A stretch of DNA of 64,000 bases. Origin: an uncultured Gammaproteobacteria bacterium. Its GTDB lineage: Bacteria > Patescibacteriota > Patescibacteriia > UBA9934 > GWF2-40-263. Numbering within the stretch: the first letter of the stretch is position 1; every line of letters begins with the position of its first letter. The notes beneath the pieces were generated by a model that was given only the letters and a program-made list of their open reading frames with translations, had not been told where the DNA came from and searched no databases. The DNA lies in NCBI GenBank assembly GCA_964616135.1, contig CAZTTQ010000001.1, positions 43,875 through 107,874 on the forward strand. The letters run 5' to 3'. The translations under genes were made by a program, and so were the position numbers. Below, piece by piece: positions 5,753-58,438 of the stretch.

Positions 5753-7279
5753 TCAGAACGACAGGTCTTTGCCGGCGACGAGCGGGTCGCCGTTGACGCA
5801 GAAGCCCTGCGCCATGACGAGGTCCGTGTAGCAGAAGCGGAGAATCTCGACGCGGAGGACGTTGCCCGGAACGGCCCGGGTCGCGTCCATTGCGAAACGG
5901 AAGACCCGTTCGGTCCCGTTTGCAAGCGTCCCGCCGTTTCCCGCCATGTTGATGACTGAGACCGTGGGGGAGATCGCCGTCCGGGTGACATCCGCGAAGA
6001 GTGCGGCGTCCGGCAGGGCGGCGTCCGTGGTCCGAACCGCCTCCGTGCCGCCGTACCACCCGTCGTGGGTGAGGCGGTACCGTACGGAGGTGAGGAGGGC
6101 GTCGTGTCCGGCGGGTGCGGCGGGGTTCACTACGCGGAACGCCAGCGTGTTGGCGAACGACGGGGAGACGGTTCCCGCGGGGGAATCGTCCGTCCGCGCG
6201 GCTTGCGGCATCTGGGGGATCCGGATGAACGCGTAGTCGTGGTGGGACGCGTTCGTCGCGCCGTAGGCGATCTCCGGAACTTCTCCCGTATCGGCGTCCC
6301 GCAGGTCGATGGACCGGAGGGACGCGGCCAGGAGGAAGTTCGGCGCGCCGACGTTCGCGTTCGTCCAACAGAAGACGCCGAGTTCGCCGGATCCATGCAG
6401 GACGAACGGTTGGTCCGCGAACGAGAGGACGGTCCGTCCCTCTTCGGCCGCGGGACGCCGTCCGGATGCCTGTCCCGGAGGCGTGGTTGGCCCCGCGTAG
6501 GAAACGTAGCAGGCGCCGATACGGTCGCGCAGCAAGGAGGAAGACGCCTCCCAGACGTTGGTCCCGTCGAACGGGGCCACGTCCTGGACGACGTCGAGGT
6601 CGATCCTGGCCACGCGGACGTTCCGGTCTCCGGCACGGACGGAGAGGCGGAGGAACTGGAACAGGCCGCCCGGATACGACTGGGTGACCGTGTCCTCGTC
6701 CGGAGACGCGTCCCCGACCGCCACGATGCCGGGCGGCGGGTTTACCAACGGTTCGCATGAGCGGCCGTCCGCGGCGAGGGTTTCCCCCCGTTCGCAGCGC
6801 CGCTTGCACGTGGCGGTTGCCGTGTCGAACAGCCATCCCTCGTCACACGTGACGTCGTAGGCGCAGGATGCATGGCCGGTCTCCCGGTCCATGTTCGGCG
6901 AGAGGCCGTCCGGACACGTGATCGTGACGTCCGGGCACTCCTTTTCGGAGAACACCTCCGCGCCCGTGGAGAGACAGACGTAGAAGATCACTTCTTCCGG
7001 CGGCTGCGTCGTGGGGCACGCGCCCGCGCGCGGGCGGATGGAACCGTCGGCGCAGACGTAGACGCGCTTCTCGACGACCTTCGCAGGACCGCCGAACGGA
7101 TGGCAGGCGATCCCGCCGTCTTCCACCACCGCCCCTTCATCGGGGAGGCAGGGGACTGAGAAGCAGGCGCCGGAGGAGGTCGCGTACGACCCTTCCGGGC
7201 ACGAGGAGGAGACGGGGGCGTCTCCACAGGATGCCAGGGCCGATGCGGCCAGGGCGAAGTACATGAGGCGGGTGCGCAT
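5753..7279 (-). CDS. secreted cysteine-rich lipoprotein, paralog 1 of a tandem family (508 aa)
   Basis: The signal peptide ends in a lipobox (ALASC) and the N-terminal half is cysteine-rich. The C-terminal region aligns with paralog 2 (e.g. VRVDVTGFCYRD / LRVEILRFCYTD). The gene has an ATG start with GGAGGT. Confidence 0.75.
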   Translation of the reverse strand: MRTRLMYFALAASALASCGDAPVSSSCPEGSYATSSGACFSVPCLPDEGAVVEDGGIACHPFGGPAKVVEKRVYVCADGSIRPRAGACPTTQPPEEVIFYVCLSTGAEVFSEKECPDVTITCPDGLSPNMDRETGHASCAYDVTCDEGWLFDTATATCKRRCERGETLAADGRSCEPLVNPPPGIVAVGDASPDEDTVTQSYPGGLFQFLRLSVRAGDRNVRVARIDLDVVQDVAPFDGTNVWEASSSLLRDRIGACYVSYAGPTTPPGQASGRRPAAEEGRTVLSFADQPFVLHGSGELGVFCWTNANVGAPNFLLAASLRSIDLRDADTGEVPEIAYGATNASHHDYAFIRIPQMPQAARTDDSPAGTVSPSFANTLAFRVVNPAAPAGHDALLTSVRYRLTHDGWYGGTEAVRTTDAALPDAALFADVTRTAISPTVSVINMAGNGGTLANGTERVFRFAMDATRAVPGNVLRVEILRFCYTDLVMAQGFCVNGDPLVAGKDLSF

Positions 7280-7438: not shown

Positions 7439-8791
7439 TCAGAACGTCCACGTCTCGCCCGTGATGAGCACGGAGGAGTTGTCCAGGCAGGTTTCCACGT
7501 CCGCGAACGGATCGCGGTAGCAGAACCCGGTGACGTCGACGCGGACGGTGTCCGTGCCGGGCGCCCGCGCCTGCTCCGTGTCCATCTGGAACCGGAGCGT
7601 CAGCGGACGGGACGCCTGGATCGGGACCGCGTCGCGGGCCGTGTCCTGCATGAGGAACAGGAATTCCCCGTTGCTGGCGTTCGTCTGGATGTTGGTGAAC
7701 AACGAGCGCGACGGGTCGCGGATGTCGGTCACCCGTACGGTGGAAGGCGCGGTGTACCAGCCGTTGTCGATGATCGCAAACTGGACGGACCAGGTCTGCA
7801 GATCTCGACAGGACGCGTCGGCCACCACGTCGAACCGGAGGACTTCCCGGAGCGTGGTGGGCGTGGTGGGGTCCCAGTCCGTCTGCCCGACCTGGAGGAC
7901 GGGCGGCGGACAGGGGGGAAGCGGCGCGGCGCGGACCTGGTAGCTGAAATCGCTGTTCAGGTCCTCGAAGGTCACTTCGCTGCCGACGATGGGTTCGCCG
8001 GTTTCCGCGTCGACCAGGGTGACCAGGTCGAGCACGAGCGCCACGTGGTATGCGACCGGCGACGGCTTGAGGTCGCACTGGACGCTCACGTTGATGGACG
8101 TCCCCGAGCCGACGGCTTCGGGAAAGAACACCATCGCCTGCTCGGACAGGGGGACGTGGTCCAAGGACACTGGCCCCGCGACCTGCGCGGTGCTTGCATC
8201 CGTCAGCGTGCAGTCGCCGAGGTATTCGGCGACGTCCGCCTGGGTATGGAGCCACAGGGTCCGGTCGGGCACGACGCCGTCCTGCTCCACGCCGACGTAG
8301 GCGAGGAACCGGACGTCGCGCAACGTCACGGCGCGCGTCTCGTCCTGGATGATGAGCGGAAACAGGTCGGTGCGGGTTCCCACCGTCGTGTCGACGAGCC
8401 GCGGGACGCCGCCGTTCGGCGGGCGGACGGAGACGGTCCCCCGGACCTGCTGTCGGACACAGCCGTCGCCGGAGGCGTTCACCGTCTGGCCGGGCGGGCA
8501 CACCTTGAGGCAGGCCTTGGAGACCTCCTCGTACGCGTACCCGTCCGCGCAGGCCCGGGGACAGTCTTCCGGACGATCGACGTAGGTGTCGGTCGCCACG
8601 CACTTGTACTTGGTGACCGTCTCCTTTACGGTCACGGTTTCCTTGATGACGACCGGGGCGTCGACCGGGCACCGGGCCGGGTCGGTCACCCGCGTCTGCG
8701 CCGCGTCGCGGCAGACGTATTCCTGCGGCACGTCACCGCAGGCGGTGGCAAGGGAAAAGAGCAAGACGAACGGGACAGGGGGACGGAACAT
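7439..8791 (-). CDS. secreted cysteine-containing lipoprotein, paralog 2 (451 aa)
   Basis: Start taken at MFRPPVPFVLLFSLATAC (lipobox) with AAGGAG 6 nt upstream; C-terminal homology to paralog 1; longer track ORF to 8887 rejected. Confidence 0.7.
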   Translation of the reverse strand: MFRPPVPFVLLFSLATACGDVPQEYVCRDAAQTRVTDPARCPVDAPVVIKETVTVKETVTKYKCVATDTYVDRPEDCPRACADGYAYEEVSKACLKVCPPGQTVNASGDGCVRQQVRGTVSVRPPNGGVPRLVDTTVGTRTDLFPLIIQDETRAVTLRDVRFLAYVGVEQDGVVPDRTLWLHTQADVAEYLGDCTLTDASTAQVAGPVSLDHVPLSEQAMVFFPEAVGSGTSINVSVQCDLKPSPVAYHVALVLDLVTLVDAETGEPIVGSEVTFEDLNSDFSYQVRAAPLPPCPPPVLQVGQTDWDPTTPTTLREVLRFDVVADASCRDLQTWSVQFAIIDNGWYTAPSTVRVTDIRDPSRSLFTNIQTNASNGEFLFLMQDTARDAVPIQASRPLTLRFQMDTEQARAPGTDTVRVDVTGFCYRDPFADVETCLDNSSVLITGETWTF

Positions 8792-8868
8792 GGGTTTACT
8801 CCTTCGGTGGGGCGCGGCCTTCGCCATTACGATAACACGTCCGTTCATTTGTGATAGGGCGAGGAGTG

Positions 8869-8897
8869 ACGATAGGCGTTTTTCCAAGGTTTGTCAA
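8869..8897 (-). promoter_or_regulatory. sigma70-type promoter TTGACA-N17-TATCGT (minus strand) for paralog 2; cassette copy B
   Basis: Consensus -35, 17-nt spacer; ~85 nt cassette nearly identical to 7345-7440. Confidence 0.6.
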
Positions 8898-17631: not shown

Positions 17632-18471
17632 ATGTTGATTGATACTCATTGCCATGTCAGTTTTGAAGCGTACAAGGACGACGCAGAAGAAGTCGTGAAG
17701 CGCGCGCTTGCCGCCGGCGTGCAGATGGTCACGATTGGCACGCGCATCGAGACTTCCGTTGCCGCGGTGAAGTTTGCCGAGGCACATGAAGGCGTGTGGG
17801 CGACGATCGGCCTCCATCCGGGCCACGTGCACGCGCAGGAGTATGTGGATAAAAACGAAGTGCCCGCGGACCAAGTCGGCGCCGGGCACGCGGCGGAAGT
17901 GTTTGATGCGGAAGCGTATCGGAAACTGCTTGCGCATCCGAAAGTCGTCGCGATCGGCGAATGCGGGTTGGATTACTATCACGCGCCAAAAGACGCGGCG
18001 GACGACGCGTGGAAAACGGAGCAGCAGGCGGTCTGTCGCGCGCAACTCAAGCTCGCTTCTGAAGCGGGGAAGCCGGTGGTGATCCATTGCAGGGACGCGC
18101 ACCAGGACCAGGCGCGGCTCATCCGTGACGAAATCGCCGCGGGAGGCCTCGCCCGCCGCGGAGTGATCCATTGCTTCACCGGCACGGCCGAAGAAGCGGC
18201 GATGTATCGCGAACTGGGATTCATGGTCGCGTTCGGCGGCATTATCACGTTCGGCAAGAGCGTGGCGGACGCGGCCGCGCAGGTTCCGCTCGACCAAATC
18301 GTGCTGGAAACCGACGCGCCGTACCTTGCTCCCGCGCCGTACCGCGGCAAACGCAACGAACCGGCCTACGTCACGGAGGTCGCGCGCAAACTCGCCACGC
18401 TCAAAGGCACGACGGTGGAAGAAATTTCCCGCGTGACGACGGAGAACGCGAAACGGCTGTTCCAGATATAA
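17632..18471 (+). CDS. tatD: TatD family metal-dependent hydrolase/DNase
   Basis: MLIDTHCHV N-terminus, GECGLDY, HCRDA motifs. Confidence 0.85.
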   Translation: MLIDTHCHVSFEAYKDDAEEVVKRALAAGVQMVTIGTRIETSVAAVKFAEAHEGVWATIGLHPGHVHAQEYVDKNEVPADQVGAGHAAEVFDAEAYRKLLAHPKVVAIGECGLDYYHAPKDAADDAWKTEQQAVCRAQLKLASEAGKPVVIHCRDAHQDQARLIRDEIAAGGLARRGVIHCFTGTAEEAAMYRELGFMVAFGGIITFGKSVADAAAQVPLDQIVLETDAPYLAPAPYRGKRNEPAYVTEVARKLATLKGTTVEEISRVTTENAKRLFQI

Positions 18472-18517
18472 AAAATCACCGCCCCGTCCGGAGTACCGGA
18501 GGGGCGGTTTCGCGTTT
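18472..18517. terminator. bidirectional terminator, member of repeated family (ccgcccc gtccggagtaccggag gggcgg + TTTCGCGTTT)
   Basis: Near-identical (~40 nt) to element at 19142-19187. Confidence 0.65.
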
Positions 18518-19059
18518 CAGTACTGGGCGCGGAAGCGCTCCAGCAGCCAGCCGGGACGCGTCGCGAAGCCGAAGACGTCGCAGAGGGCGTTCGGCAGCTT
18601 GTGCCGGTCCTGGTAGCCGTCCTTCACGCCGTAGAGGAGCGGCGCCTCGAGCCGGCCGGCGAGCAGGGCCGCGCACGTGTGGTTGTGCAGCGGTGGCGCG
18701 CGGAAGAAGTAGTGGAGGAGGGCCTCCGCTTCCACCTTCGGCAGGTGCAGGACGTCCGTCCGCTTCTTCTCCTGGGAGACGAGCGTCGTGTCCGCGCGGA
18801 GGAGGGCGTCGTTGTCGTGCGTCTCGCGCTCGACGTCGCGGACCGGCAGGTCGAAGCGGTCCGTGATCACGGGCAGCTGGCCCTTGGCGAGCAGCTCTCG
18901 CGTGTCTGGTAGCAGGTCGTCCGGTTCCGGCACGGCGAAGCGGATGAACCAGCAGCCGATGCCGGGAATACTCGTGTTCATCGTGACCGTGCAGTCCGCG
19001 ATGTCCACGATGATGGTGTTGCCTTCGCACGCGAAGATCCTTGTCGTATAGTCCGACAT
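18517..19059 (-). CDS. hypothetical protein (180 aa)
   Basis: High GC3; own promoter and SD GGAGGAAATAG; flanked both sides by copies of the same terminator element. Confidence 0.55.
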   Translation of the reverse strand: MSDYTTRIFACEGNTIIVDIADCTVTMNTSIPGIGCWFIRFAVPEPDDLLPDTRELLAKGQLPVITDRFDLPVRDVERETHDNDALLRADTTLVSQEKKRTDVLHLPKVEAEALLHYFFRAPPLHNHTCAALLAGRLEAPLLYGVKDGYQDRHKLPNALCDVFGFATRPGWLLERFRAQY

Positions 19060-19101
19060 CCTATTTCCTCCGTCCCGGTTGACTGTTAGGCGGGACGAAG
19101 C

Positions 19102-19130
19102 ACCCTAGCTGAACGGCTGGCCATTGTCAA
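19102..19130 (-). promoter_or_regulatory. sigma70-type promoter TTGACA-N17-TAGGGT (minus strand)
   Basis: Consensus -35 with 17-nt spacer directly downstream (minus sense) of terminator repeat. Confidence 0.55.
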
Positions 19131-19141
19131 TGTATACCGGT

Positions 19142-19187
19142 AAAAAAACGCCGCCCTTCCGGAGTACTGGAGGGGCGGTTTGCGTTT
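19142..19187. terminator. terminator repeat copy 2 (A7 gccgccc ttccggagtactggag gggcgg TTTGCGTTTG)
   Basis: Immediately after NUDIX stop (19192) on minus strand; A-tract/T-tract flanks. Confidence 0.65.
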
Positions 19188-41679: not shown

Positions 41680-41789
41680 ATCGCGGGAAGGATACGGCAA
41701 AACGCCTTCCGCGGGAAGGGTTGACGCGCCGCGTGTTTTCTGGTTGAATGCGACGTCCGGCAGTCGGACACTGTCCCGAGGTGCAGCCC

Positions 41790-42713
41790 ATGGTGAAGAA
41801 AGCTTCCCCCTCACGTCAGGGGAAACGGTCGTCGAGGGGGTCTTCCTCTTCGCTCGGCGTGGATGCCTGGTTCCGTTACCAGGCGGAGATCAGCTCGCAT
41901 CCGATCCTGACGGCAGAGGAAGAACAGGATCTTGCACGGCGGTTTCGGGACGAAGGCGACCTGGACGCCATGCACGCGCTTATCACCTCGAACCTCCGGT
42001 TCGTCGTGAAGGTCACCTACGAGTACCGCAGCTACGGCTTTCGGCTGGCCGACCTCGTGCAGGAAGGCAACATCGGGCTCATGAAGGCCGTCCGGAAGTT
42101 CGACCCGGACCGGAATATCCGGCTCATCACGTACGCTGTCTGGTGGATCCGCGCGTACATCCAGAGCTTCATCCTGAGGAACTGGAGCCAGGTGAGGTTG
42201 GGAACGACCAATGCGCAGCGCACGCTGTTCTTCTCCCTTGCCCGCGTCCAGCGCGAGCTGGAACGGATGGGCGAAGAAGAGACCACGGACGAATCCATCG
42301 CGGAGCTGCTCCGGACCAAGCCGGAAGAGGTGCGCAACATGCGCGCCCGGCTCGAGGCGCGGGACGTGTCGCTCGACACGCCCGTCGGCGAGGAAGGGAC
42401 GGCGACGGCGCTGGACTTCCTCTCGGACGCGGCGCAATTGTCCGCGCACGATCTCCTGGAGGACGCGACGCGCGGACGCCTGGTCCGCGACCAGGTCGCC
42501 CGGGCGTTACGGTGCCTGAACCCGCGTGAGCTCTACGTCGTCAAGCAGCGGGTCATGGCCGATCCCCCCATGCCGCTCCAGGACGTCGGCAAGCATTTCG
42601 GCGTTTCACGCGAACGCGCCCGCCAAATCGAGGTGCGGGCGAAGCAGCGTCTCCGCTCCATCCTCGGCGCGTACCTGGAAATCCCGCTTGAGGACGAAGA
42701 AGAGAAGAAGTGA
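41790..42713 (+). CDS. sigma-70 family sigma factor, RpoH (sigma-32)-like
   Basis: Regions 2-4 present; QRTLFFSL resembles the RpoH box Q(R/K)(K/R)LFFNLR; start MVKKASPS with GAGGTG SD; possible TTGACG-N17-TTGAAT promoter at ~41721-41749. Confidence 0.8.
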   Translation: MVKKASPSRQGKRSSRGSSSSLGVDAWFRYQAEISSHPILTAEEEQDLARRFRDEGDLDAMHALITSNLRFVVKVTYEYRSYGFRLADLVQEGNIGLMKAVRKFDPDRNIRLITYAVWWIRAYIQSFILRNWSQVRLGTTNAQRTLFFSLARVQRELERMGEEETTDESIAELLRTKPEEVRNMRARLEARDVSLDTPVGEEGTATALDFLSDAAQLSAHDLLEDATRGRLVRDQVARALRCLNPRELYVVKQRVMADPPMPLQDVGKHFGVSRERARQIEVRAKQRLRSILGAYLEIPLEDEEEKK

Positions 42714-42722
42714 TCTCCCCTC

Positions 42723-42758
42723 CCCCGCCTCCGCCACTCGGAGACGGGGTCTTTTTTA
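42723..42758 (+). terminator. intrinsic terminator after sigma factor gene
   Basis: ccccgcctccg/cggagacgggg stem + TCTTTTTTA. Confidence 0.6.
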
Positions 42759-42769
42759 TGCGGACAGGT

Positions 42770-43579
42770 TTATGCGGACAGGACGACTTCCACCGGGCAG
42801 TGGTCGCTGCCCATCTGCGAGGCGAGGATGGCGGCGGACCTGATGCGGCTTTTCAGCGCCTTGCTGGCCAGCCAGTAGTCGATGCGCCAGCCGACGTTGC
42901 GCGCGCGGGCGTTCGCCCAGTGCGTCCACCAGGAATAGTGGCCGTTCCCTTTGGTGAACAGGCGGAACGTGTCGAGGAATCCGGCGTCCAGGAACGCCTG
43001 GAATCCGGCGCGTTCCTCCTCCGTGAACCCGTGTTTGCCGACATTCTGCTTGGGGTTTGCCAGGTCGTCTTCCGTATGGGCGACGTTGAAGTCCCCGGAG
43101 ACCAACACGGGCTTGGTCTTTTCCAGCAGCTTCACGTGGGCCAAGAACGCCGGATCCCAGTGTTTTTTCCGCAGGTCCAGGCGCGACAAGTCCTCTTTGC
43201 TGTTGGGCACGTAAGCCGTGACCACCCAGAAGTCCTTGAACTCCGCGCTGATGACGCGGCCTTCGCACGTCGGGTCGCCGTATTCGTCCGCACCGAGTTT
43301 GTATTTTTCCGCAATGCCGTCCGCAAAGCCGTAGAGAACGGAGATCGGCTTTTCCTTGCTGAAGATGGCGGTGCCGCTGTAACCGGCTTTTTCCGCGCTG
43401 TTCCAGTATTCCTCATAGTCCGGCAGGTCCACGTCGGCCTGGCCTTGCTTTGCCTTGGTTTCCTGCAGGCAGAGGACGTCGGGTTCGTACGCTTCAATGA
43501 ACGCGCGAAAATCCCCCTTGTTCAACACGGCGCGGATCCCGTTTACGTTCCAGGAAATGAGGCGGAGGGTTTTGGGCAT
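42770..43579 (-). CDS. xth: exodeoxyribonuclease III (AP endonuclease, Xth family)
   Basis: LISWNVNGIRA, LCLQETK, SDHCPV motifs. Confidence 0.9.
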   Translation of the reverse strand: MPKTLRLISWNVNGIRAVLNKGDFRAFIEAYEPDVLCLQETKAKQGQADVDLPDYEEYWNSAEKAGYSGTAIFSKEKPISVLYGFADGIAEKYKLGADEYGDPTCEGRVISAEFKDFWVVTAYVPNSKEDLSRLDLRKKHWDPAFLAHVKLLEKTKPVLVSGDFNVAHTEDDLANPKQNVGKHGFTEEERAGFQAFLDAGFLDTFRLFTKGNGHYSWWTHWANARARNVGWRIDYWLASKALKSRIRSAAILASQMGSDHCPVEVVLSA

Positions 43580-45489: not shown

Positions 45490-46458
45490 TCAAGTCCCCT
45501 CCTCTGCCGCGCAGGCGGCGAACGTGCGGGTAAACAGGGCGCGGTCCAGGGCGCGGCCAATCAGTACCACGTCGCTCCGGCGCTCTTCCCCCTCCTTCCA
45601 CGGACGGTCAGGCAGCGTTTCGAAATGGTGGTGCACGCCTTGGAAGACGAAGCGCTCCTCGCGTCCCTCGATGAAGAGGATGCCCTTGTAGCGCATGAGC
45701 TGGTCCCCGTTCAGCAACAGCGTTTCCGCGACCCAGCGGGACACCTTGGCCAGCGCGAGCGGTCGGGTTTCCTTTAACGCCACGCTCATCACGGCCGGGT
45801 TGTGGCCGTGGCGGTCTTGGGAAAAGCCCGTGGCGCGTTCATACGCCCGTCCGGAGGCGTTGGGCGCGAAGAGAACGTCCAGCGGGAGCTCCGAGCGCAC
45901 CGTGCGGACGACGCGGACGTGCTCGTTGTATTTCCGGATGACGTCCTCCAGTCTGCGCAGCGCGTCGGGGGCGACCAGGTCCGTCTTGTTGAGCAGGACG
46001 ACGTCCGCCGCGGCCAACTGTTCCGCCGCCTCCTTGGTTTCGGCCAGCTGGCCCTCCAAGTGGAACGCGTCCGCCACGGTGACGATGGAATCCAGCGCGT
46101 ACGCCTTGGCGAGCGAGGGGCGGTTCAGGAACGCCTTTACCAACGGGAACGGGTCGGCCAGGCCCGTGGTTTCGATGAAGACGCGTTCGAGACTCCCTCC
46201 CTCCCGCTTCAATTCCAACAGCTGCACCAACGCGTTGGCGGTGTCGCCGAGGGCGGCGCAGCAAATGGCGCCGTTCGACAGGGTCACGGTGGCGCCGGTG
46301 CCTTCCGGCAGGATCTGGTCGTCGATGCCGACGTCGCCGAATTCGTTCACCACCACCGCGACGCGGCGGCCGTGGAAGTCGTTCAGCAGGCGGTTCAACA
46401 GCGTGGTTTTGCCCGCGCCGAGAAAGCCGGTGATGAGGGTGACGGGGATGTGGGACAT
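45490..46458 (-). CDS. CobW/COG0523-family G3E GTPase (putative metal chaperone)
   Basis: Walker A GFLGAGKTT, CxCC-type motif (GAICCA), 322 aa. Confidence 0.75.
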   Translation of the reverse strand: MSHIPVTLITGFLGAGKTTLLNRLLNDFHGRRVAVVVNEFGDVGIDDQILPEGTGATVTLSNGAICCAALGDTANALVQLLELKREGGSLERVFIETTGLADPFPLVKAFLNRPSLAKAYALDSIVTVADAFHLEGQLAETKEAAEQLAAADVVLLNKTDLVAPDALRRLEDVIRKYNEHVRVVRTVRSELPLDVLFAPNASGRAYERATGFSQDRHGHNPAVMSVALKETRPLALAKVSRWVAETLLLNGDQLMRYKGILFIEGREERFVFQGVHHHFETLPDRPWKEGEERRSDVVLIGRALDRALFTRTFAACAAEEGT

Positions 46459-46460
46459 AC

Positions 46461-46835
46461 TTATTTGGTTTTGGCGCGCTTGGCTGCGGCGGCGGCGGCT
46501 TCCGCCCAGCGGACGGCTTCTTCCGGACGTTCCAGGATTTCCTCCGGCACGGAAAGGTAGCCCAGGGACACTTCCGTCCGGTCCTTGGCCGCGTAGGAGA
46601 ACGGTTCCCCGCCCGCCGCGGCCATCATGGCGCGGTTCTTTTCATCCACCTTAAGGTACAGGATGCCTTCCGCAACGATGCCGAAAAAGACGGAACCGGC
46701 GTACAGGCCATGCCCGCCGAACATGGCACGGGCCCGCAGCCCGGGCAGCCCGGCCAAGACGTCACCTAACACGTGTTCGACGAAACGGTCCGGTTTGCGG
46801 GCCATAGGAAGGATGGTGAGGGTCTTCTGTACCAT
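46461..46835 (-). CDS. TfoX N-terminal domain protein
   Basis: RARAMFGGHGLY...LYLKVDE matches TfoX_N consensus; start at MVQKTL (M91 of track ORF). Confidence 0.6.
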   Translation of the reverse strand: MVQKTLTILPMARKPDRFVEHVLGDVLAGLPGLRARAMFGGHGLYAGSVFFGIVAEGILYLKVDEKNRAMMAAAGGEPFSYAAKDRTEVSLGYLSVPEEILERPEEAVRWAEAAAAAAKRAKTK

Positions 46836-46911
46836 GTTTCGCCCCGCGGCGGTAGGGGCGAGGGGCGCCCCATGTTCAAACGTCCGCGTTTGCCCTATTG
46901 TACTTCCTCGT

Positions 46912-47265
46912 ATGGATTTCACCGAATTCGAACGCCTGGTCTCCGAGGCCGTCGATTCCCTGCCCGCCCACGTTTCGTCCGAGTTGGACAACGTGGCGTT
47001 TCTGGTCGAACCCGCAAGCCCGAACGGCGACGCGTTGGGCGAATACATCGGCGTGCCGCGCACGGAGCGCATCGCGTCGGATCCGTTGGAGTTGCCGGAC
47101 CGCATCGTGCTCTACCATGCCGACATCGTGGACGAATGCGACGGGGATCCCGCGGCGATCAGGGTGGAAATAGAACGCACGCTGTGGCATGAGATTGGCC
47201 ACCACTTGGGTTGGGACGACGACGTGATGGAGGAAGTGGAACGCAGCAAAGGATGGCGGGAATGA
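46912..47265 (+). CDS. zincin-like metallopeptidase family protein (HEIGHH)
   Basis: HEXXH motif WHEIGHHLGWDDD in a ~117-aa protein. Confidence 0.5.
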   Translation: MDFTEFERLVSEAVDSLPAHVSSELDNVAFLVEPASPNGDALGEYIGVPRTERIASDPLELPDRIVLYHADIVDECDGDPAAIRVEIERTLWHEIGHHLGWDDDVMEEVERSKGWRE

Positions 47266-47357
47266 GGCGGACGGACCCTGGACAACGGGGTCCGTTTTTG
47301 CTAGGCCCCGCGCGCCTTAATGTCCGGATGTCCCGGACTTTTGGCAAGAGGTAGGCC

Positions 47358-47636
47358 GTGAAGCGTGACTTGTACTGGCTGTTTGATCAGGCGTTGCAGA
47401 TCCTGGATCCGGCGAAGGCGTTCGACCTCACATTCAACACGTCCGGATTCGGTCCGGACTACGCCGTGTACTTCCCTGACGACGAAGGGGCTGTGCGCTA
47501 CTCGAGCGAGTCGCCGCACCGCCTGAGGGTCGCCATCATCGAAGGCGCCCGCACGGGCCTGACCTGGGCCGGCACGCGACAACCCCCGCCGCTCCGATCT
47601 GGAGCCGGCGGGGATTTTTTATCGCTGAACGATTGA
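47358..47636 (+). CDS. hypothetical small protein (C-terminus overlaps terminator hairpin)
   Basis: GTG with GAGGTAGG SD; protein-like N-terminal 75 aa. Confidence 0.35.
   Translation: MKRDLYWLFDQALQILDPAKAFDLTFNTSGFGPDYAVYFPDDEGAVRYSSESPHRLRVAIIEGARTGLTWAGTRQPPPLRSGAGGDFLSLND
47583..47622 (+). terminator. terminator, member of repeated pair (cccccgccgctccgatctggagccggcgggg + ATTTTTTAT)
   Basis: Near-identical 40-nt copy at 48431-48468. Confidence 0.65.
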
Positions 47637-47661
47637 CAAACCCCCCGTTTTGCTGTATAAG
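47633..47661 (+). promoter_or_regulatory. sigma70-type promoter TTGACA-N17-TATAAG
   Basis: Consensus -35/-10; ~70-nt structured leader to ATG 47736. Confidence 0.6.
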
Positions 47662-47735
47662 AAAAATGTCGGATACCTCCGACGACCCGCGGCCGGTTTT
47701 GGTCGTTTCGTAGGACGAAAGGATGTGAAGGCACG

Positions 47736-48422
47736 ATGGGACTGACCCTGCTCTGGGTACTGAACTTTGCCATCTCGTGGTTCAACGCGTGGGCCTGCGG
47801 CCAGGCGTGGAACGAAAGCAAGAAGCAGGGCGGCTTCCCGCATCTGACCAACTGGGCGGGTGCGATCATGTCCGCCAGCGGCTTCAGCTGGTGCTACATG
47901 GTGGTTCTCGCCTGGTTCGGCGCCACGGTGCCGTTCACGGACAAGAAGACCCACGTGGTGTCCACCCTGCTCAGCCAGGCGGACCTGCAGGCCTTCTGCG
48001 ACCTCGGCTACGCCGTGATCGTGATCCCGATCATCGGGTCGGGCCTGATCATCATGCTCGACACGTGGGCGCACTTCTACCGGAAGCGCACCATCGGGAA
48101 CGCCCTGCTCTCCGGGTACAACACCTTCGCCCAGCTGCACAACATGTACAGCGCGGCGCAGCACCTGCCCGGCGTCTTCACGCGGCTCGGAGACTTCTTC
48201 TTCGCCAAGGGCAGCAAGGACGGAAAGGGCAAGCTCATCATCGCCCTCGTCGTCCTCTCCGTGGCGGGCGGCATCCTGACGGCCCGCGCCATCCTGCTCG
48301 CGTCCGCCGGCAGCCGCGCCCGCCGCACCTCCGACGACCTTCACGACGCGGAACGTGAGTTCAAGCGCCGCGAACGCGAACGTGGGCACGCCGCCGGCAG
48401 CGGAGCCGCTTCCGCCGCCTGA
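47736..48422 (+). CDS. hypothetical polytopic membrane protein
   Basis: Hydrophobic, SD AAGGATG; flanked by two copies of the same terminator. Confidence 0.55.
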   Translation: MGLTLLWVLNFAISWFNAWACGQAWNESKKQGGFPHLTNWAGAIMSASGFSWCYMVVLAWFGATVPFTDKKTHVVSTLLSQADLQAFCDLGYAVIVIPIIGSGLIIMLDTWAHFYRKRTIGNALLSGYNTFAQLHNMYSAAQHLPGVFTRLGDFFFAKGSKDGKGKLIIALVVLSVAGGILTARAILLASAGSRARRTSDDLHDAEREFKRRERERGHAAGSGAASAA

Positions 48423-48430
48423 AACGCAAT

Positions 48431-48468
48431 CCCCGCCACTCCGATCTGGAGCCGGCGGGGATTTTTTA
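48431..48468. terminator. bidirectional terminator repeat copy 2
   Basis: ccccgccactccgatctggagccggcgggg + ATTTTTTATT; also directly follows ATPase stop on minus strand with TTGCGTTT tail. Confidence 0.65.
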
Positions 48469-50325
48469 TTCCGCAGAAGCGACGCGCAGCGCGTTCAAGA
48501 TGACGACGACGTCCACCGCCTCCTGCAGGATGGCGCCGTAGAGCGGCGGGAGATATCCGGCCGCGGCGACGCCCATGAGGAGAAACGACAGCGCCATGCC
48601 GAGTTGGATACCGCCGACGGCGACGCTCACCGTGCGTTTGGCGATGGCGCGGACTTCCGCGACCTTGTGTACGTCGTCCAAGGTGATGACGATGTCCGCC
48701 GTTTCCGCGGAGGCGGCGGATCCGTTCGCCCCCATCGCGATACCGACGTCGGCGGCAGCCAGCGCGGGCGCGTCGTTCACGCCGTCGCCGACCATGGCTA
48801 CCGCGCCGCGGGTTTGGAGCTGGGCGATCCGCTTCACCTTGTCGCCCGGCAGGCATTCGGCAAACACGCGGCTGACGCCCGCTTCTTTTGCCAGGGCCTT
48901 TGCGACGGTCTCTTTGTCGCCGGTGAGCAATTCCACGTCCTTTACGCCCGCGCGGCGCAGTTCCGCGACGAACGCGGCCAGTCCGGGACGGGCCTTGTCC
49001 GAAAACGAGATGGATCCGCGGAGCCGGTTCCCTTCTGCCAAATATACGGTGCGGATGCCGCGGGACTTTTTCTTTTCCGCGTCCTTTGCCAACGCCCCCG
49101 GGATGGCGACGCCTAATCCCTTGAGGAAGCTGAGGCGGCCGAACGCGTACGTCTTTCCGCCCAGGCGGCCGGTGACGCCGCGGCCCACGTCTTCCTTAAA
49201 GCGTTCCGGGAACGGCAGAGCGAGTCCGCGCTCTTCTGCCTGAGCCGTCAGGGTGCGGGCCAATACGTGGGACGATCCCTGGTCCAAGGACGCGGCGAGG
49301 CGCAGTACGTCTTCTTCCGAGCCGTATTCGGCGGCAATCCCGCGTACGACCGGCGTGCCGAACGTGAGCGTGCCGGTCTTGTCGAAGACGAACGCGCGGG
49401 CGCGGGCCAATACCTCCAAGGCCCCTCCGTGCTTCACGATGATACCCCGGCCCGCCGCCCGGCTGATGCCGGAAATCATGGCGATCGGCGTGGCCAGGAT
49501 AAGCGGGCACGGCGTGGCCACCACTAGCACGGCCAGCACGCGCGTCGGATCGCCGGAAACCATCCACGCCCCCGCGGCCACCAAGAACGTGACGAGGGTG
49601 AAGAATCCGCTATACCGGTCCGCCAGGCGCACGAGCGGCGCTTTTTTGCTTTCCGCCTCCTGCACGAGCGTCACGATGCGTCCGTATTGGCTTTCCGCCG
49701 CGTTGGAGAGCGCGCGGACGGTCAGAAGCGATCCGCCGTTGACGGCGCCGCCGGGAATGCGGCTGTGCGGCGCCACGTCCATGGGCAGTGATTCGCCCGT
49801 CAGGCGCGATGCGTCCATTTGTCCCGTCCCTGCGATGACCACCGCGTCCACCGGCACCACGTCACCCGGTTTAACGGCCAAGCGGTCGCCCGCCTTTACC
49901 TGTTCTACCGGCACGTTTTTCACTTTGCCGCGCACGTACAGGTGCGCCACGGTCGGCGCGGCGGACAACAGCGCCCGGAGCGATCGGCGCGCACGGACGA
50001 GCGCATACGCTTCCAGCGCTTCGCCGCCAGAAAGCATGAGCAAGATGACGCAGCCGGCCACCCACTGGCCGAAGAAGGCCGCCGCGCCCATGGCCGCGAC
50101 CGCGATCACGTCCACGCCGAACCGGCCCTTTGTGAGCTGGCGCAACAGACCGGCTGCCGCGGGGATCCCGCCCGCCGCCAGGAGCAGGACGAACGCCGGC
50201 AGCGCCGCTTCCGCTCCTGATCGGGACTGCCAAGCCAGCGCCGCTCCAAACCACAACGCGAACACGACCGGTTGCACCAAGGCGTGCGCGGCGCGGGAAC
50301 GCTCCTCCTGAGCCTGCTGTTTCAT
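48466..50325 (-). CDS. P1B-type heavy-metal-translocating P-type ATPase (no N-terminal HMA domain)
   Basis: CPx (ATPCPLILATP), DKTGTLT, GDGVNDAPAL; start MKQQAQEE with TATACT box 7 nt upstream (possibly leaderless). Confidence 0.85.
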   Translation of the reverse strand: MKQQAQEERSRAAHALVQPVVFALWFGAALAWQSRSGAEAALPAFVLLLAAGGIPAAAGLLRQLTKGRFGVDVIAVAAMGAAAFFGQWVAGCVILLMLSGGEALEAYALVRARRSLRALLSAAPTVAHLYVRGKVKNVPVEQVKAGDRLAVKPGDVVPVDAVVIAGTGQMDASRLTGESLPMDVAPHSRIPGGAVNGGSLLTVRALSNAAESQYGRIVTLVQEAESKKAPLVRLADRYSGFFTLVTFLVAAGAWMVSGDPTRVLAVLVVATPCPLILATPIAMISGISRAAGRGIIVKHGGALEVLARARAFVFDKTGTLTFGTPVVRGIAAEYGSEEDVLRLAASLDQGSSHVLARTLTAQAEERGLALPFPERFKEDVGRGVTGRLGGKTYAFGRLSFLKGLGVAIPGALAKDAEKKKSRGIRTVYLAEGNRLRGSISFSDKARPGLAAFVAELRRAGVKDVELLTGDKETVAKALAKEAGVSRVFAECLPGDKVKRIAQLQTRGAVAMVGDGVNDAPALAAADVGIAMGANGSAASAETADIVITLDDVHKVAEVRAIAKRTVSVAVGGIQLGMALSFLLMGVAAAGYLPPLYGAILQEAVDVVVILNALRVASAE

Positions 50326-50403
50326 GCGGCCCAGTATAGCGCGTCTTCCCACCCCACCCCAAACCCTGGCGGAATACGGGGATCTCGCCTACACTTCCCC
50401 CGT

Positions 50404-50913
50404 ATGCGTCTCCCTACGAGAAAATCAGAAACCGACCGTATCGCCCTCCAGGGAGAACCGGACCGCTTCCTTACGCCGGAGACCATGGAACGGATGCGGC
50501 GCCAAATTTACGACCTGGAAACCGTCCAGCGCCCGTCCGCTAAGTTGGAGCTGCAAAAAGCGCAGGAAATGGGCGACTTGTCCGAAAACTTCGGCTATCA
50601 GGAAGCCAAACGCCGGCTGCGCAACATCAATGACCGCATCGTGATGCTGGAAGAAAAGCTCAAAGTTGCCGTCCCGATCCACGCCGGGTCTGAAGACGGC
50701 AAAATCCGCATCGGTTCCACGGTCACGGTGGAAACCGGCGGCAAGGAGACCGAATACATGATCGTCGGTGCGCAGGAAGCCATGCCGCTCCGTCGCAAGA
50801 TTTCGTATCTGTCGCCGCTTGGTGCGCTCCTTATGGGCAAATCCGCGGGCGACGTCGTGACGGTCAAAACCGAACGCGGCGACGCCGTCTACCGCATTTT
50901 GTCGGTCGCGTAA
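50404..50913 (+). CDS. GreA/GreB-family transcription elongation factor (second paralog)
   Basis: MGDLSENFGYQEAKRRLR and C-terminal domain similar to 29090..29542 product. Confidence 0.75.
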   Translation: MRLPTRKSETDRIALQGEPDRFLTPETMERMRRQIYDLETVQRPSAKLELQKAQEMGDLSENFGYQEAKRRLRNINDRIVMLEEKLKVAVPIHAGSEDGKIRIGSTVTVETGGKETEYMIVGAQEAMPLRRKISYLSPLGALLMGKSAGDVVTVKTERGDAVYRILSVA

Positions 50914-56374: not shown

Positions 56375-56381
56375 AGAAATT

Positions 56382-56398
56382 TATTCCCCTTTCGTTAA
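56382..56398. repeat. left copy of 17-bp imperfect direct repeat TATTCCCCTTTCGTTAA bounding low-GC island
   Basis: 15/17 identity with 58533-58549; positioned exactly at the GC-content break. Confidence 0.45.
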
Positions 56399-56441
56399 GC
56401 CGTTGTCGGAAACGAACTAGACCAGCGGGGTATAGGAAAAA

Positions 56442-58238
56442 CTATAGGTTTGTATCTATCCAATCAAAGATCTGGTTGAATCGAGTAATTGTGTCGATAT
56501 GAATTTTTTTCTTAGTAATTGATCCATCCGACACTTTCTCAAAAAAAGATTTAGCAAATACAATCTTCCGTTTTTCACCGATGGACTCAGCTGGATCTGT
56601 TTTTTGAACAATTTTATCGTCAATTAACTTTAAGTCATCCAAATGAAGTAGGTTTTCTACGGATGAAATTCCAATAGTGATATACATCTTGGAGGCAGCA
56701 GCTCCCTCGTCTTTTTCGAAGAGATGTTCTTTGATTTCTTCGTAAGTTTTTTGAGAATCTTTTCCTCGCGAAGAATCGTCATCGAAAATTGCGACCCAAG
56801 AAATACCGTAACCAATACAAAATGAAACTAGAGTGTATTGTTTTCTGACACCTATTCCCGGTATGAAGGCGTAGTCTGCAATATCACGTTTGAGGAGGGT
56901 TCTCATTGCACTGTAGTAATAAAAATCTGAAACTCCTTCCAGAATCACACTCTTTTTATTTGTCAGCCCAAAATCGCTTACCGAGAAGCCAATAGCATTT
57001 GCCACTGGCTGGAGTGCATCTTGTTTATTCTGAGAATCAATTTTGGAGGAAGTGATATTCTCTATCAATGTTCCTTTGGTTTTATCATTTACGATGAGGT
57101 GTATTCTTTCAAGATGATCTGTCCTGATCAAATTTGGCGAATGAGTTGAGTAGAGAAATTGATGCCCCGTTTTTGTTAGAGATTCAAATACATTGAGGAT
57201 GTCGGTCTGAGCTTTTATATGAAGATAGAGTCCGGGTTCATCCGCTAAAACAATCAATTCTCTCTCATGACCACTCGCCTGTAATTCCATCCAAAAAGAA
57301 AGAAACCATACCAATCCCTTACTCCGCATTCGGGGACGAATTTTTTGTTTATCCTTTGTCTCAATATAAAAACTTACAAAAGTGTCATCTTCGGAAGATC
57401 GTTTTTCGAATTTATAGGCAATTTTTACTCTATTATCACCGTGAATTTGTTGCTTCCATGCTTTTGTAAAATCAATCGATATAGCTTCATTATGTTTTTC
57501 CTCAATAGAGTCTCTCTTCAAGTCATCTAGACTGTACAGAGTTTTAAAATCTGCACCTGATATTTTTTCAAAGTTTTTTACGGCCTTATACCCTTTTGAA
57601 TCTTTTTTGTCGCTTTTTAGATCCTTAAGCGAGAAGGTGTCTGGCAATAGATCGCAGAAATCATTAAACAAGATGATTTTAGGAGTATGGTTCCAGAATA
57701 ACTCAGCGACTTCTGAATTCTGATCGTCAGTAAGTTCAATAATCTTTTTCCTCTCCTTCTTTACTGGAGCAACTTCTGCCTCCACATTAACGTCTTCTTC
57801 AAGAATAGAGCTACGAAAGATCTGAAAAACTGCTTCAGGGATAGATGTCTGCACCTTTTTAGAGGGATTTAGCGTTCGAGTAATTTTAAAATCTTTTACC
57901 GTGCGTTTCAGTTTTGGGATGTCAATTAATGATCCGACTTTAGCTCGCTCAATCTCATTCTGTTCACCAAATGTTTTTTCAATTTCATCCCAAAAATCAG
58001 AATCCGATTCTTCAATTTCGTATGTGCATGACACCTCTTGAATTGGTGACTCAAAATCAAATGGTATGGAATCTGATTCAAATTCTGCGTTTTCAAAAGC
58101 AGCCAGACCCTCTAAAATAGAGCTTTTACCAGACTCATTTTGACCAGCGAAAATTGCAATTCTCCCATTACCTAAAGAAATCTCTCCAGTATCCTGAATG
58201 GACTTATAATTCTTAATTCGGAATGATTTCAATTTCAT
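56442..58238 (-). CDS. OLD-family ATP-dependent endonuclease (ABC-type ATPase + C-terminal Toprim), standalone
   Basis: The ATPase half has Walker A GQNESGKSS, Walker B LIVLADEPGLYLH and H-loop STHSP. The Toprim half has Glu (VILEGVSD) and DxD (IFDDDS). Gene GC is ~35% against a ~65% background. Confidence 0.75.
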   Translation of the reverse strand: MKLKSFRIKNYKSIQDTGEISLGNGRIAIFAGQNESGKSSILEGLAAFENAEFESDSIPFDFESPIQEVSCTYEIEESDSDFWDEIEKTFGEQNEIERAKVGSLIDIPKLKRTVKDFKITRTLNPSKKVQTSIPEAVFQIFRSSILEEDVNVEAEVAPVKKERKKIIELTDDQNSEVAELFWNHTPKIILFNDFCDLLPDTFSLKDLKSDKKDSKGYKAVKNFEKISGADFKTLYSLDDLKRDSIEEKHNEAISIDFTKAWKQQIHGDNRVKIAYKFEKRSSEDDTFVSFYIETKDKQKIRPRMRSKGLVWFLSFWMELQASGHERELIVLADEPGLYLHIKAQTDILNVFESLTKTGHQFLYSTHSPNLIRTDHLERIHLIVNDKTKGTLIENITSSKIDSQNKQDALQPVANAIGFSVSDFGLTNKKSVILEGVSDFYYYSAMRTLLKRDIADYAFIPGIGVRKQYTLVSFCIGYGISWVAIFDDDSSRGKDSQKTYEEIKEHLFEKDEGAAASKMYITIGISSVENLLHLDDLKLIDDKIVQKTDPAESIGEKRKIVFAKSFFEKVSDGSITKKKIHIDTITRFNQIFDWIDTNL

Positions 58239-58438
58239 AGGGTATGTCAGAAACTGGTTCAGAGTTATCTATTAAACTTATCGACTTTGGGTAGGAGCTC
58301 GCTCGCAAGAATATTGATCAACACATCGCGACACACCCCAATCGCTGCGCTGCCCAGCTTCCCAAAATTATTCTTTTGAATCTTCGTAGTTTGCATCATA
58401 AACGAAAGGATGATCGTCAACGGAGTCAGAAACATTAA

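Follow-up and report, generated by a model that had tools for sequence, protein, structure and literature searches.

In the stretch of DNA analysed here, 64 kb in length and called the window throughout, two near-identical hairpins frame a phage-family membrane-protein gene (locus a), which stands where part of the housekeeping aminopeptidase gene pepA lies in related genomes. The source genome is Uhrbacteria-like. The reading we favour, at a probability of about 0.68, is that a terminator resident at the locus was copied around the gene which replaced part of pepA, in a local rearrangement of palindromes that are not themselves mobile. The features concerned are collected in Table 1.

Table 1. 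Features of locus a, its neighbours and the companion locus b (positions in the window)
Feature	Position	Strand	Remarks
Zincin_1 metallopeptidase gene, 117 aa	46912..47265	+	PF06262, E 1.5e-17; conserved upstream neighbour
pepA remnant (Peptidase_M17 codons 1-74), putative pseudogene	47358..47579	+	blastn to L009 8655-8872
Replacement segment, ~820 bp	47579..48397	+	takes the place of pepA codon 75 through stop
Hairpin copy 1, predicted terminator	47580..47622	+	stem-loop 47584-47613, then A-T6-AT; covariance-model score 68.9 bits
Sigma-70-like promoter, predicted	47633..47661	+	TTGACA 47633-47638, 17-nt spacer, TATAAG 47656-47661; sequence match
Membrane-protein gene, 228 aa, hydrophobic helices	47736..48422	+	phrog_37671, E 2.1e-34
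Former pepA 3'UTR (AGCGGAGCCGCTTCCGCCGCCTGAAACG...)	48398..48426	+	28/28 identical to the sequence just past the pepA stop in the nearest relative
Hairpin copy 2, predicted terminator	48427..48469	+	stem-loop 48431-48460
Heavy-metal P-type ATPase gene	48466..50352	-	Pfam E1-E2_ATPase + Hydrolase; convergent neighbour
Companion locus b	18469..19187	-	hairpins b1 and b2 around a 180-aa gene with a TTGACA promoter

The two hairpins form a direct repeat of 43 nt, with 41 of the 43 positions identical and mismatches at positions 4 (C/T) and 12 (G/A). An earlier note on this DNA had placed a repeat of about 40 nt at 47583-47622 and 48431-48468, framing a membrane-protein gene with the promoter TTGACA-N17-TATAAG; the repeat is real and slightly longer, the framed ORF encodes hydrophobic helices, and the promoter-like sequence is present. 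Each unit reads CAAY-CCCCGCC...GGCGGGG-ATTTTTTAT, a GC-rich hairpin of 12 pairs with a T-tract (A-TTTTTT-AT) immediately 3' of the stem. Folding energies of copies 1 and 2 are -28.4 and -25.4 kcal/mol (z about -4.5 and -4.0), and none of 200 shuffled sequences was equally stable. Allowing up to 3 mismatches, the 39-nt core occurs at exactly two sites in the window, and at none in 100 shuffles. Whether the copies resemble each other more than unrelated terminators do, the doubt raised in the earlier note, is settled by the 28 strong terminator-like hairpins of the window: among the resulting 378 pairs copies 1 and 2 are the most alike, with 95% identity, where the median pair has 58% and the 95th percentile lies at 72%. 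A homology of the two hairpins, beyond the mere resemblance found between terminators, is supported. The loop GATCT and the GGGG-A tail are common to both copies and missing from Ra and R2a, the orthologous hairpins of two relatives, which indicates that the likeness of copies 1 and 2 arose inside this lineage. We regard the two units as paralogous copies of one predicted Rho-independent terminator. The terminator is probably bidirectional: copy 2 folds on both strands, and the tail of the repeat on the minus strand is only TTGCGTTTC, a weaker T-tract than that on the plus strand. No Rfam family reached the gathering threshold in the window, and region 47250-48520 gave sub-threshold noise only.

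The locus was compared with those of three relatives, R (L009/L010, ATPase 90% identical), L012 (ATPase 66% identical) and R2 (L061/L062, Zincin_1 90% identical). Zincin_1, pepA and a terminator are present in all three; the window lacks a full pepA gene, and retains codons 1-74 only. The Zincin_1 protein is 89-90% identical at the amino acid level to those of R and R2, and its gene is followed by a terminator-like hairpin of its own (~47279-47300). At the other side, copy 2 adjoins the convergent ATPase gene at its stop codon (TTA, 48466-48468 on the plus strand). Copy 2 and both its flanks are orthologous to L009 7343-7384 (91.8% identity over 73 nt), and the hairpin has a further orthologue behind pepA in R2, a relative without the ATPase gene (L061 8955-9002). 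The hairpin of copy 2 is hence common to the window, R and R2, and the orthologous hairpins of the relatives fold alike. The pepA genes of the relatives carry no hairpin at the position corresponding to copy 1. On these comparisons copy 2 is the ancestral, resident predicted terminator of pepA, and copy 1 its lineage-specific paralogue. Breakpoints relative to the related genome fall by blastn at 47578/47580 and 48397/48398, the right-hand junction being placed by local alignment. A possible microhomology of 4-5 nt (ACGCG) was read by eye at the left junction.

A mechanically called ORF, 47358..47636 (92 aa), runs through copy 1 to a stop at 47634-47636. The earlier note held that copy 1 encodes the C-terminus of this small ORF; the frame does read through the hairpin, but the ORF is a decaying remnant of pepA rather than a small gene. 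By blastp 35 of 74 residues are identical to residues 1-73 of the M17 protein of a relative (E 3e-18), and a whole-library HMMER search at E <1e-7 returned nothing but the ORF and one 490-aa protein, matched at residues 4-75. Three further HMMER matches are weak and of low identity, to large proteins matched in multiple stretches. The remnant is 47% identical to R and 45% to R2 at the amino acid level, R and R2 being 74% identical to each other, and its nucleotide branch (0.31) is 4-8 times longer than those of neighbouring genes (0.04-0.085), a sign of relaxed constraint on a decaying pseudogene. Survival of the 3' coding end of pepA upstream of 48398 was considered and rejected, since a similarity to R2 as high as this arises in 822 of 2000 shuffles and is not significant.

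The replaced portion of pepA measures 1242 bp in the relative (L009 7413-8654). The new segment includes copy 1, which is its left end and is accompanied by 775 bp of other DNA, the TTGACA-N17-TATAAG sequence, and most of the membrane-protein gene. The promoter-like site begins 10 nt past the T-tract of copy 1; it was omitted by an automated promoter scan because a T was required at the last -10 position. The predicted 5'UTR, from ~47668 to 47735, hosts no Rfam family. The last 8 codons of the membrane gene and its stop (48398-48422) are former pepA 3'UTR, and copy 2 starts 9 nt past this stop codon. The encoded protein belongs to a phage-associated family: tblastn matches at 35-39% were found in phages of E. 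coli, Aeromonas, Burkholderia and Pseudomonas, and homologues occur also in four IMG/VR contigs. It has 42 non-self homologues, none of them more than 53% identical and one or more from Ca. Uhrbacteria, and no match in Pfam, NCBIfam or PADLOC; its AF2 model (pLDDT 94.7) found no significant fold match in PDB or BFVD. The gene is missing from every relative locus compared, at this position from R, R2 and L012, and repeated hairpins do not flank its homologues elsewhere (L001, L002 and the four viral contigs). GC content is 66.5%, and GC3 is 92%, against 74-88% in neighbouring genes, a host-like composition. That the membrane gene is a lineage-specific insertion, equipped with a promoter-like site of its own, is supported by these sequence comparisons.

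The companion locus, which the earlier note had placed at 18472-19187, holds as well. Hairpins b1 (18469-18517) and b2 (19141-19187) are ~86-88% identical, and flank a 180-aa gene (18517..19059, minus strand) lying between convergent TatD and NUDIX genes. Support was obtained for this gene, too, being an insertion particular to the lineage, and it has a promoter-like site of its own. Relatives L054 and L051 carry a single hairpin, and its two sides correspond to the outer flanks of b1 and b2, which points to one ancestral terminator duplicated around the inserted gene. Locus b shares the architecture of locus a and is older, a single bidirectional terminator being the predicted ancestor. It is confirmed by an independent Logan contig (99.85% identity, L049), and was found also in a relative (L057-L060).

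The local-copying account may be detailed as follows. After the split from the nearest sampled relative, pepA codon 75 through the stop would have been replaced by ~820 bp in which the terminator recurs, followed by a sigma-70-type promoter and the phage-family membrane gene, whose reading frame would have entered the old pepA 3'UTR and ended there. Copy 1 would stop upstream transcripts, coming from the surviving pepA promoter and remnant; the membrane gene would then be driven solely by its own promoter, and copy 2 would end both the membrane-gene and the ATPase mRNA. Copy 1 may have been copied from the resident terminator during or near the rearrangement, by illegitimate or template-switch recombination, and would have been retained by selection, since in a compact genome a gene lodged between two convergent ones must have a terminator at either end. 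A hint that homology goes on for ~11 nt beyond copy 1, into bases derived from the ATPase gene, would prove copying from copy 2 but is weak (reached by 29 of 1000 shuffles when anchored, and by 1090 of 5000 when local). No intermediate genome was found for the step making copy 1. Tandem gene duplication as the source of repeated terminators was discarded, since neither flanked gene is a copy of the one beside it: the membrane gene has no relation to pepA or to the ATPase gene, and the 180-aa gene has no similarity to NUDIX. Unlike the flanked genes, the 5.7-8.9 kb array does consist of paralogues.

The earlier note had imagined a family of mobile or recombinogenic palindromes which insert insulated transcription units. 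Independent insertions of a mobile palindromic repeat (REP/BIME, MITE, Correia or RPE-like) on either side of the gene, and where the small ORF ends, would agree with the location of copy 1 within an ORF, as in Rickettsia palindromic elements, and with the occurrence of the hairpin family at more than one locus in a relative. This explanation is nonetheless largely refuted, and little credit is left to it. A covariance model of the hairpin recovered the two copies of the window and three in relatives (two in the nearest, one in another) at 52-75 bits, and all other terminators in 228 kb scored 25 bits or less. A pattern scan across metagenomes gave no sites other than the two of the nearest relative; one across a genome collection, in which the source genome is not included, gave only 34 palindromes put down to chance, from Actinobacteria and further high-GC taxa, and none in a CPR genome. 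Neither copy has a target-site duplication, nor inverted repeats at its ends other than the stem; among the annotated neighbours there is no gene for a transposase, an integrase or a RAYT. The putative flank signature TTYGCGTTT is not enriched (5 sites against 2.6 expected), and three other single-gene insertions in the source genome have no duplicated hairpin. Copy 2 is orthologous in three genomes, copy 1 came along with other DNA, and the ORF hosting it is a pseudogene remnant. The synteny comparison which the note had recommended bears out a lineage-specific insertion, and finds an ancestral copy 2 in place of a mobile palindrome. Mobility of the palindromes is unsupported, and they look like ordinary intrinsic terminators, locus-specific and locally duplicated; that they are recombinogenic is possible, and unproven. 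Very improbable in our opinion is also that the hairpin is a site for site-specific recombination (attC-like, Xer/dif-like or similar), at which circles carrying promoter and gene integrate, leaving a site on each side. The site-gene-site architecture is seen at two loci in one window, the duplicated unit of locus b is the whole spacer between convergent genes, as in a Campbell-type event, and terminator hairpins contain several of the rearrangement breakpoints of relatives; in compact genomes, however, convergent spacers are nearly all terminator, and breakpoints are expected there by default. No tyrosine or serine recombinase was found near either locus or in syntenic relatives. By eye the unit has neither an attC core (RYYYAAC...GTTRRRY), GTTRRRY being missing on its 3' side, nor a dif-like sequence. 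The hairpins of loci a and b are distinct (74-77% alike), the unit brings its own promoter, and at locus a a simple crossover at the hairpin would have left the old 3'UTR on the other side, pepA being moreover deleted. Integron cassettes depend on IntI and a promoterless array; here a single gene has a promoter-like site, and no integrase was found nearby or in syntenic relatives.

Against local copying, a related terminator carried by the donor is conceivable, and Rb, the MarR terminator of a relative, documents a-like hairpins at other loci. A fragment of ~820 bp, coming from another locus of the same genome or of a close relative, could have had the membrane gene already downstream of a related terminator; the near-identity of the copies, 847 bp apart, would then reflect family relatedness, possibly sharpened by short-tract gene conversion. 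We deem this unlikely, while giving it real weight. Rb is identical to copy 2 at 36 of 39 positions; Rb and its positional orthologue R2b share the outer stem only, and the interior of Rb is a-like, a pattern compatible with conversion between terminators. The host-like GC3 of the membrane gene fits as well, and the insert seems to be joined illegitimately at either end, as a captured fragment would be. Yet neither a donor locus nor a membrane-gene homologue above 53% amino acid identity was found, an extra conversion step is needed to explain the loop and tail which copy 1 shares with copy 2 and which are absent from the orthologues of the latter, and locus b is a case in which one resident hairpin was truly duplicated. 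More doubtful, and suggested with reserve, is that in compact CPR genomes the bidirectional terminator hairpin of convergent genes is a preferred landing and breakage site, and that integration of a promoter-gene unit duplicates the whole hairpin, by staggered breaks at a cruciform or hairpin or by template switching. On this view nearby hairpins might, in addition, homogenise one another by short-tract conversion. Should this be so, each acquired gene would automatically be insulated by a terminator on both sides, in a 'terminator-duplicating' gene gain that is enzyme-independent or relies on an enzyme as yet unknown. Hardly any probability is given to a chimeric metagenome contig joined at the shared 43-mer. 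Locus a comes from one MAG contig, and the exact proteins looked up from it (membrane protein and ATPase) were found in no other assembly; k-mer collapse, on the other hand, would not create the novel junctions, as neither is at the repeated sequence (one joins pepA codon 74 to the hairpin, the other the membrane gene to the 3'UTR). The long-term accelerated divergence of the pepA remnant, and the verification of the similarly built locus b in other sequences, also speak against an artefact.

Parallels to the arrangement can be drawn from several known systems. Intrinsic terminators of convergent genes share with the hairpins a GC-rich stem-loop followed by a T-tract, the location at 3' ends and a conserved orthologous position, and, when bidirectional, an A-rich or weakly T-rich flank on the other strand; peculiar to this case is a putative terminator copy duplicated 5' of a new gene, inside the reading frame of a remnant. 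Illegitimate or microhomology-mediated recombination accompanies DNA uptake or repair, in the forms of HFIR, double illegitimate recombination and template switching. Replacement of resident by unrelated DNA, non-homologous junctions, the possible left-junction microhomology and the competence-type genes (TfoX_N, prepilin peptidase) in the window are in line with it; no homologous anchor was identified, however, and a duplicated 43-nt unit is no standard product. Transposon target-site duplications, and the repeat duplication made by Cas1-Cas2 at CRISPR arrays, also leave a palindromic unit on both sides of an insert, and the outer flanks at locus b are likewise those of one ancestral unit; here, though, the unit is a 43-49 nt terminator, no integrase or transposase was found, and the geometry of locus a is unfit for insertion by a simple staggered cut. 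No tRNA gene, a possible integration target, is present in the window. REP/BIME, Correia, RUP, Rickettsia palindromic elements and attC cassettes are likewise short palindromes flanking genes, one here lying inside an ORF, but differ in copy number, ends, core motifs and associated enzymes. Phage morons are extra genes with their own promoter and terminator, set between genes which are adjacent in related genomes (the Hendrix/Juhala concept; PMC2920897). The membrane gene resembles a moron in being a single extra gene of a phage family, absent from relatives at that place, with a promoter-like site and terminators. It differs in residing among housekeeping genes of a CPR chromosome with no prophage context, in having replaced pepA rather than slipped between genes, in its host-like composition, and in a terminator copied, on our reading, from that of the host. 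Nothing directly relevant was found in the literature on duplicated terminators at insertion sites.

No new class of element is present here. Two misleading annotations are corrected by the analysis: the 92-aa ORF is a fragment of a pepA pseudogene, and the C-terminus of the membrane protein is a recruited 3'UTR. The locus offers a clean, dated example of gene swapping in a streamlined Patescibacteria/Uhrbacteria genome, in which a housekeeping aminopeptidase gene has been overwritten by a phage-family membrane gene, and the host terminator reused on both sides. With a host terminator at either end, the newcomer would be transcribed as an insulated unit. That 64 kb contain two cases of this kind, each between convergent genes, suggests that insertions which regenerate the terminator are favoured by selection, or possibly by mechanism; as a rule of how compact genomes gain genes, this can be tested.

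The feature at locus a, where two similar hairpins enclose a membrane-protein gene, is best read from the sequence comparisons as an ordinary intrinsic terminator, locally duplicated at a site of gene replacement. The repeat framing the gene is real, as the earlier note had held. A repeat search of the window identified a 43-nt direct repeat present twice, CAA(C/T)CCCCGCC(G/A)CTCCGATCTGGAGCCGGCGGGGATTTTTTAT, the copies being 847 nt apart and identical at 41 of 43 positions; the 39-nt core, with up to 3 mismatches, occurs in the window at these two sites alone and at none in 100 shuffles. Upon folding, each copy forms a GC-rich hairpin of 12 pairs with one bulge or internal loop (copy 1, -28.4 kcal/mol, z about -4.5; copy 2, -25.4 kcal/mol, z about -4.0), and A-T6-AT lies directly 3' of the stem in both. 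The copy 2 hairpin forms on the minus strand too, with a weaker tail, UUGCGUUUC. A custom script found 64 terminator-like sites in the window, 28 strong ones were retained, and the two copies top the resulting 378 pairwise comparisons (95%; median 58%, 95th percentile 72%); the objection that they are no more alike than unrelated terminators thus fails. The proposed promoter TTGACA-N17-TATAAG is also present as a sequence match, with a 17-nt spacer, and the product of the framed ORF is 228 aa long and has hydrophobic helices.

Coordinates of the features at locus a, at the companion locus b and elsewhere in the window, with counterparts in relatives
Feature	Window	Strand	Relatives
Zincin_1 and first 73 pepA codons (blastn)	46895-47578		L009 9336-8655
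Small ORF	47358..47636
Replacement segment	47579-48397
Copy 1 (blastn: pepA terminator)	47580-47622		L009 7384-7343
Promoter-like site	47633-47638, 47656-47661
Membrane-protein gene	47736..48422
Right-hand blastn match	48399-50913		L009 7412-4899
Copy 2	48427-48469
P-type ATPase gene	48466-50352	minus	missing, L061/L062 8937-9052
GreA gene	50272..50913
Locus b	18469-19187	minus
Hairpin b1	18469-18517
Hairpin b2	19141-19187
Half b hairpin			L054 6846-6870
MarR terminators			L009 10764-10801; L061 5495-5540
Sigma-70 family gene	41748..42713
Sigma-70 insertion	41720-42778		L048 4491-4522
Terminator of sigma-70 insert	42722-42760
14-nt tandem duplication	about 42757-42784
TfoX_N gene	46461..46793	minus
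TfoX_N insertion	46455-46894
Interval with third inserted gene	13631-14270
M17-family paralogue	2989-3597
Paralogue array genes	5753..7279, 7439..8887
Array terminators	5712-5748, 7398-7434, 8910-8946	minus
98-nt repeat	7337-7434, 8849-8946
Low-GC island	56000-59000
AAA_15/AAA_21 ATPase gene	56442..58238	minus
100-nt stretch	29196-29295, 50564-50663

Protein searches assign the window to a high-GC, Candidatus Uhrbacteria-like (Patescibacteria) MAG. Locus a lies in the order MarR, CobW, TfoX_N gene, Zincin_1, locus a, heavy-metal P-type ATPase (minus strand), GreA, prepilin peptidase, MsrA; no tRNA genes or Rfam families were found in the window. Synteny was compared with relatives R (contigs L009/L010/L011/L048; ATPase 90% identical), R2 (L061/L062; Zincin 90% identical) and L012 (ATPase 66% identical). 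Each of them has a complete Peptidase_M17 (pepA) gene (482-497 aa) directly 3' of Zincin_1, where the window has only a 5' remnant and a new segment. In R and L012 pepA and the ATPase gene converge; in R2 GreA comes next and the ATPase gene is absent, which makes the entire Zincin-GreA interval a hotspot of changing gene content. The 28 nt AGCGGAGCCGCTTCCGCCGCCTGAAACG directly following the pepA stop codon in R are identical to the last codons and stop of the window membrane-protein gene. Given this shared 3' sequence and the blastn correspondences, pepA from codon 75 through the stop codon (1242 bp in R) has been replaced by about 820 bp. The new DNA comprises copy 1, the promoter-like site, ~70 nt of 5'UTR and all but the original end of the membrane-protein gene. 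A second, distant M17-family paralogue in the window, 33% identical over 213 aa to a relative's pepA, may compensate for the loss. Cumulative GC skew peaks at about 47000-48000, in locus a, and declines to about 59 kb; the maximum may reflect gene orientation alone, or closeness to a replication terminus.

The small ORF is what is left of pepA. Over its first 74 residues it can be aligned to positions 1-73 of the M17 protein from a relative (35/74 identical, E 3e-18). Among 1.84 billion representative proteins searched, only the ORF itself and one 490-aa protein, at residues 4-75, matched with E < 1e-7; the three further hits were weak and of low identity, to large multi-stretch proteins. The remnant is decaying: its amino acid identity is 47% between window and R and 45% between window and R2, against 74% between R and R2, and its nucleotide branch to the window measures 0.31 substitutions per site, against 0.04-0.085 for Zincin, CobW and MarR. 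The adjacent Zincin gene is 89-90% identical in all three pairs. The frame does read through copy 1, as previously proposed, but no real gene owes its C-terminus to the hairpin: the ORF is a pseudogene, whose open frame just extends into copy 1.

Copy 2 is the ancestral, resident pepA terminator, because it shares both flanks with that of R (91.8% over 73 nt) and the same hairpin is also found 3' of pepA in R2. No hairpin occurs in the relatives at the pepA position corresponding to copy 1. The likeness of the two copies arose inside the window lineage, by duplication or conversion, because both have a GATCT loop and a GGGG-A tail, neither of which occurs in the orthologues of copy 2 (R, loop ATTCC and GGG-A; R2, loop GACGCT and GGG-T). 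The copies differ at 2 of 43 nt, copy 2 and its R orthologue at 5, which by our own estimate is compatible with a duplication at any point along the branch leading to the window.

The most parsimonious account is one complex illegitimate event on this branch, or two close together, by which the resident terminator would have been copied onto the left edge of the DNA coming in. Template switching with microhomology is a possible route; alternatively, insertion and duplication of the 3'UTR plus terminator may have been followed by loss of the stretch between pepA codon 75 and the hairpin base. At the left junction the sequence is ...GGCACGCGA up to the breakpoint and CAAC... after it, to be compared with AAACGCAA upstream of copy 2; the indication that ATPase-derived sequence extends beyond copy 1 is statistically weak. 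A less likely account, which fits the same observations, is that the donor brought a related terminator, its likeness then sharpened by gene conversion with the resident copy. Conversion between terminators is hinted at by those downstream of MarR in R and R2, which hold orthologous positions and a common outer stem, ATCCCCGC...GCGGGGAT; the interior matches the pepA-terminator family in R and does not in R2, and could derive from short-tract conversion between terminators 3.4 kb apart.

At locus b the minus strand carries a NUDIX gene, hairpin b2, a TTGACA promoter, a 180-aa gene and hairpin b1, TatD being convergent. The structure is confirmed, at 99.85% identity, by an independent Logan contig from the same species as the window, and the arrangement is the same in R, with both hairpins. 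Orthologous hairpins are here more alike than paralogous ones, hence this duplication is older. In R2 (L051) a single b-type hairpin lies beside NUDIX and the 180-aa gene is absent. The outer flanks of b1 and b2 match the TatD and NUDIX sides, respectively, of one ancestral hairpin; thus one bidirectional terminator, constituting the entire spacer between convergent genes, was duplicated around an inserted promoter-gene unit. Tandem gene duplication is ruled out, the 180-aa protein being unrelated to NUDIX. In the more distant L054, TatD is followed by the left half of a b hairpin only (AAAAACACCGCCCGTCCGGAG), then by unrelated sequence as far as UvrD, a deletion having its breakpoint in the hairpin loop.

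The hairpins of the two loci are only 74-77% alike, and those of b score about 20 bits on a covariance model of the a hairpin. Built from the five known members of the a family, this model gave them 52-75 bits, and all other terminators in 228 kb of window and relatives ≤25 bits. A metagenome pattern scan retrieved only two sites of R, the pepA terminator and the a-like hairpin downstream of MarR; a scan of the genome collection turned up nothing but chance palindromes from high-GC taxa. No transposase, integrase or RAYT genes were found among the neighbours here or in syntenic relatives. The earlier note proposed a family of mobile palindromes inserting insulated transcription units. The flanked genes are indeed lineage-specific, insulated insertions and the hairpins homologous copies, but palindromes as mobile agents are wrong or unproven, given the low copy number and the lack of a nearby recombinase.

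Three other single-gene insertions distinguish the window genome from R, and none has a duplicated hairpin. The left breakpoint of the sigma-70 insert falls within the relative's terminator hairpin, leaving a truncated stem, and the insert carries a different terminator; a 14-nt tandem duplication (TTTATGCGGACAGG twice) directly after the terminator at 42752 spans the stop codon and last codons of a minus-strand gene. The TfoX_N gene, absent from R and R2, was inserted between divergent CobW and Zincin_1, with no flanking repeat.

Elsewhere in the window, a third set of similar terminators (84-86% alike), embedded in a 98-nt repeat carrying a TTGACA promoter, belongs to a tandem array of distant paralogues (22% amino acid identity) and stems from tandem gene duplication. 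A low-GC island (GC 0.37-0.48; window mean 0.62), with a 598-aa ATPase gene and AT-rich short repeats, probably represents a recent, defence-like acquisition. The GreA gene has a 100-nt stretch in common, at 70% identity, with a locus at 29.2 kb; the latter also matches inside the L009 GreA gene, and may therefore hold another gene of the GreA type.

Pfam, NCBIfam and PADLOC gave no match for the 228-aa protein, but it matches phrog_37671 (function unknown; E 2e-34). Phages of E. coli, Aeromonas, Burkholderia (jumbo phages) and Pseudomonas carry homologues 35-39% identical to it, as do four IMG/VR contigs; the closest cellular ones, at least one from Ca. Uhrbacteria, are ≤53% identical. No repeated hairpins flank the homologues in other Uhrbacteria and viral contigs. 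The AlphaFold model (pLDDT 94.7) is all-helical, with no significant match in PDB or BFVD. GC3 is 92%, host-like, hence the donor was compositionally similar. With its promoter-like site and terminator, the unit recalls in architecture a phage moron, defined as an additional gene carrying a promoter and a terminator of its own (PMC2920897); unlike a moron, it is chromosomal, and took a gene's place.

It seems improbable that new genes in CPR genomes land preferentially, for mechanistic reasons, at terminator hairpins that duplicate themselves in the process. According to the reading favoured here, copy 1 would end transcripts that the remaining pepA promoter starts upstream, the new gene would be transcribed from its own promoter, and copy 2 would terminate both its mRNA and that of the ATPase. 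The duplicate may then have been maintained by selection, because in such compact genomes the spacer between convergent genes is little more than the terminator, and an inserted gene needs one per side; the presence of duplicated hairpins at both convergent junctions, a and b, and at none of the other three insertions, also fits selection.
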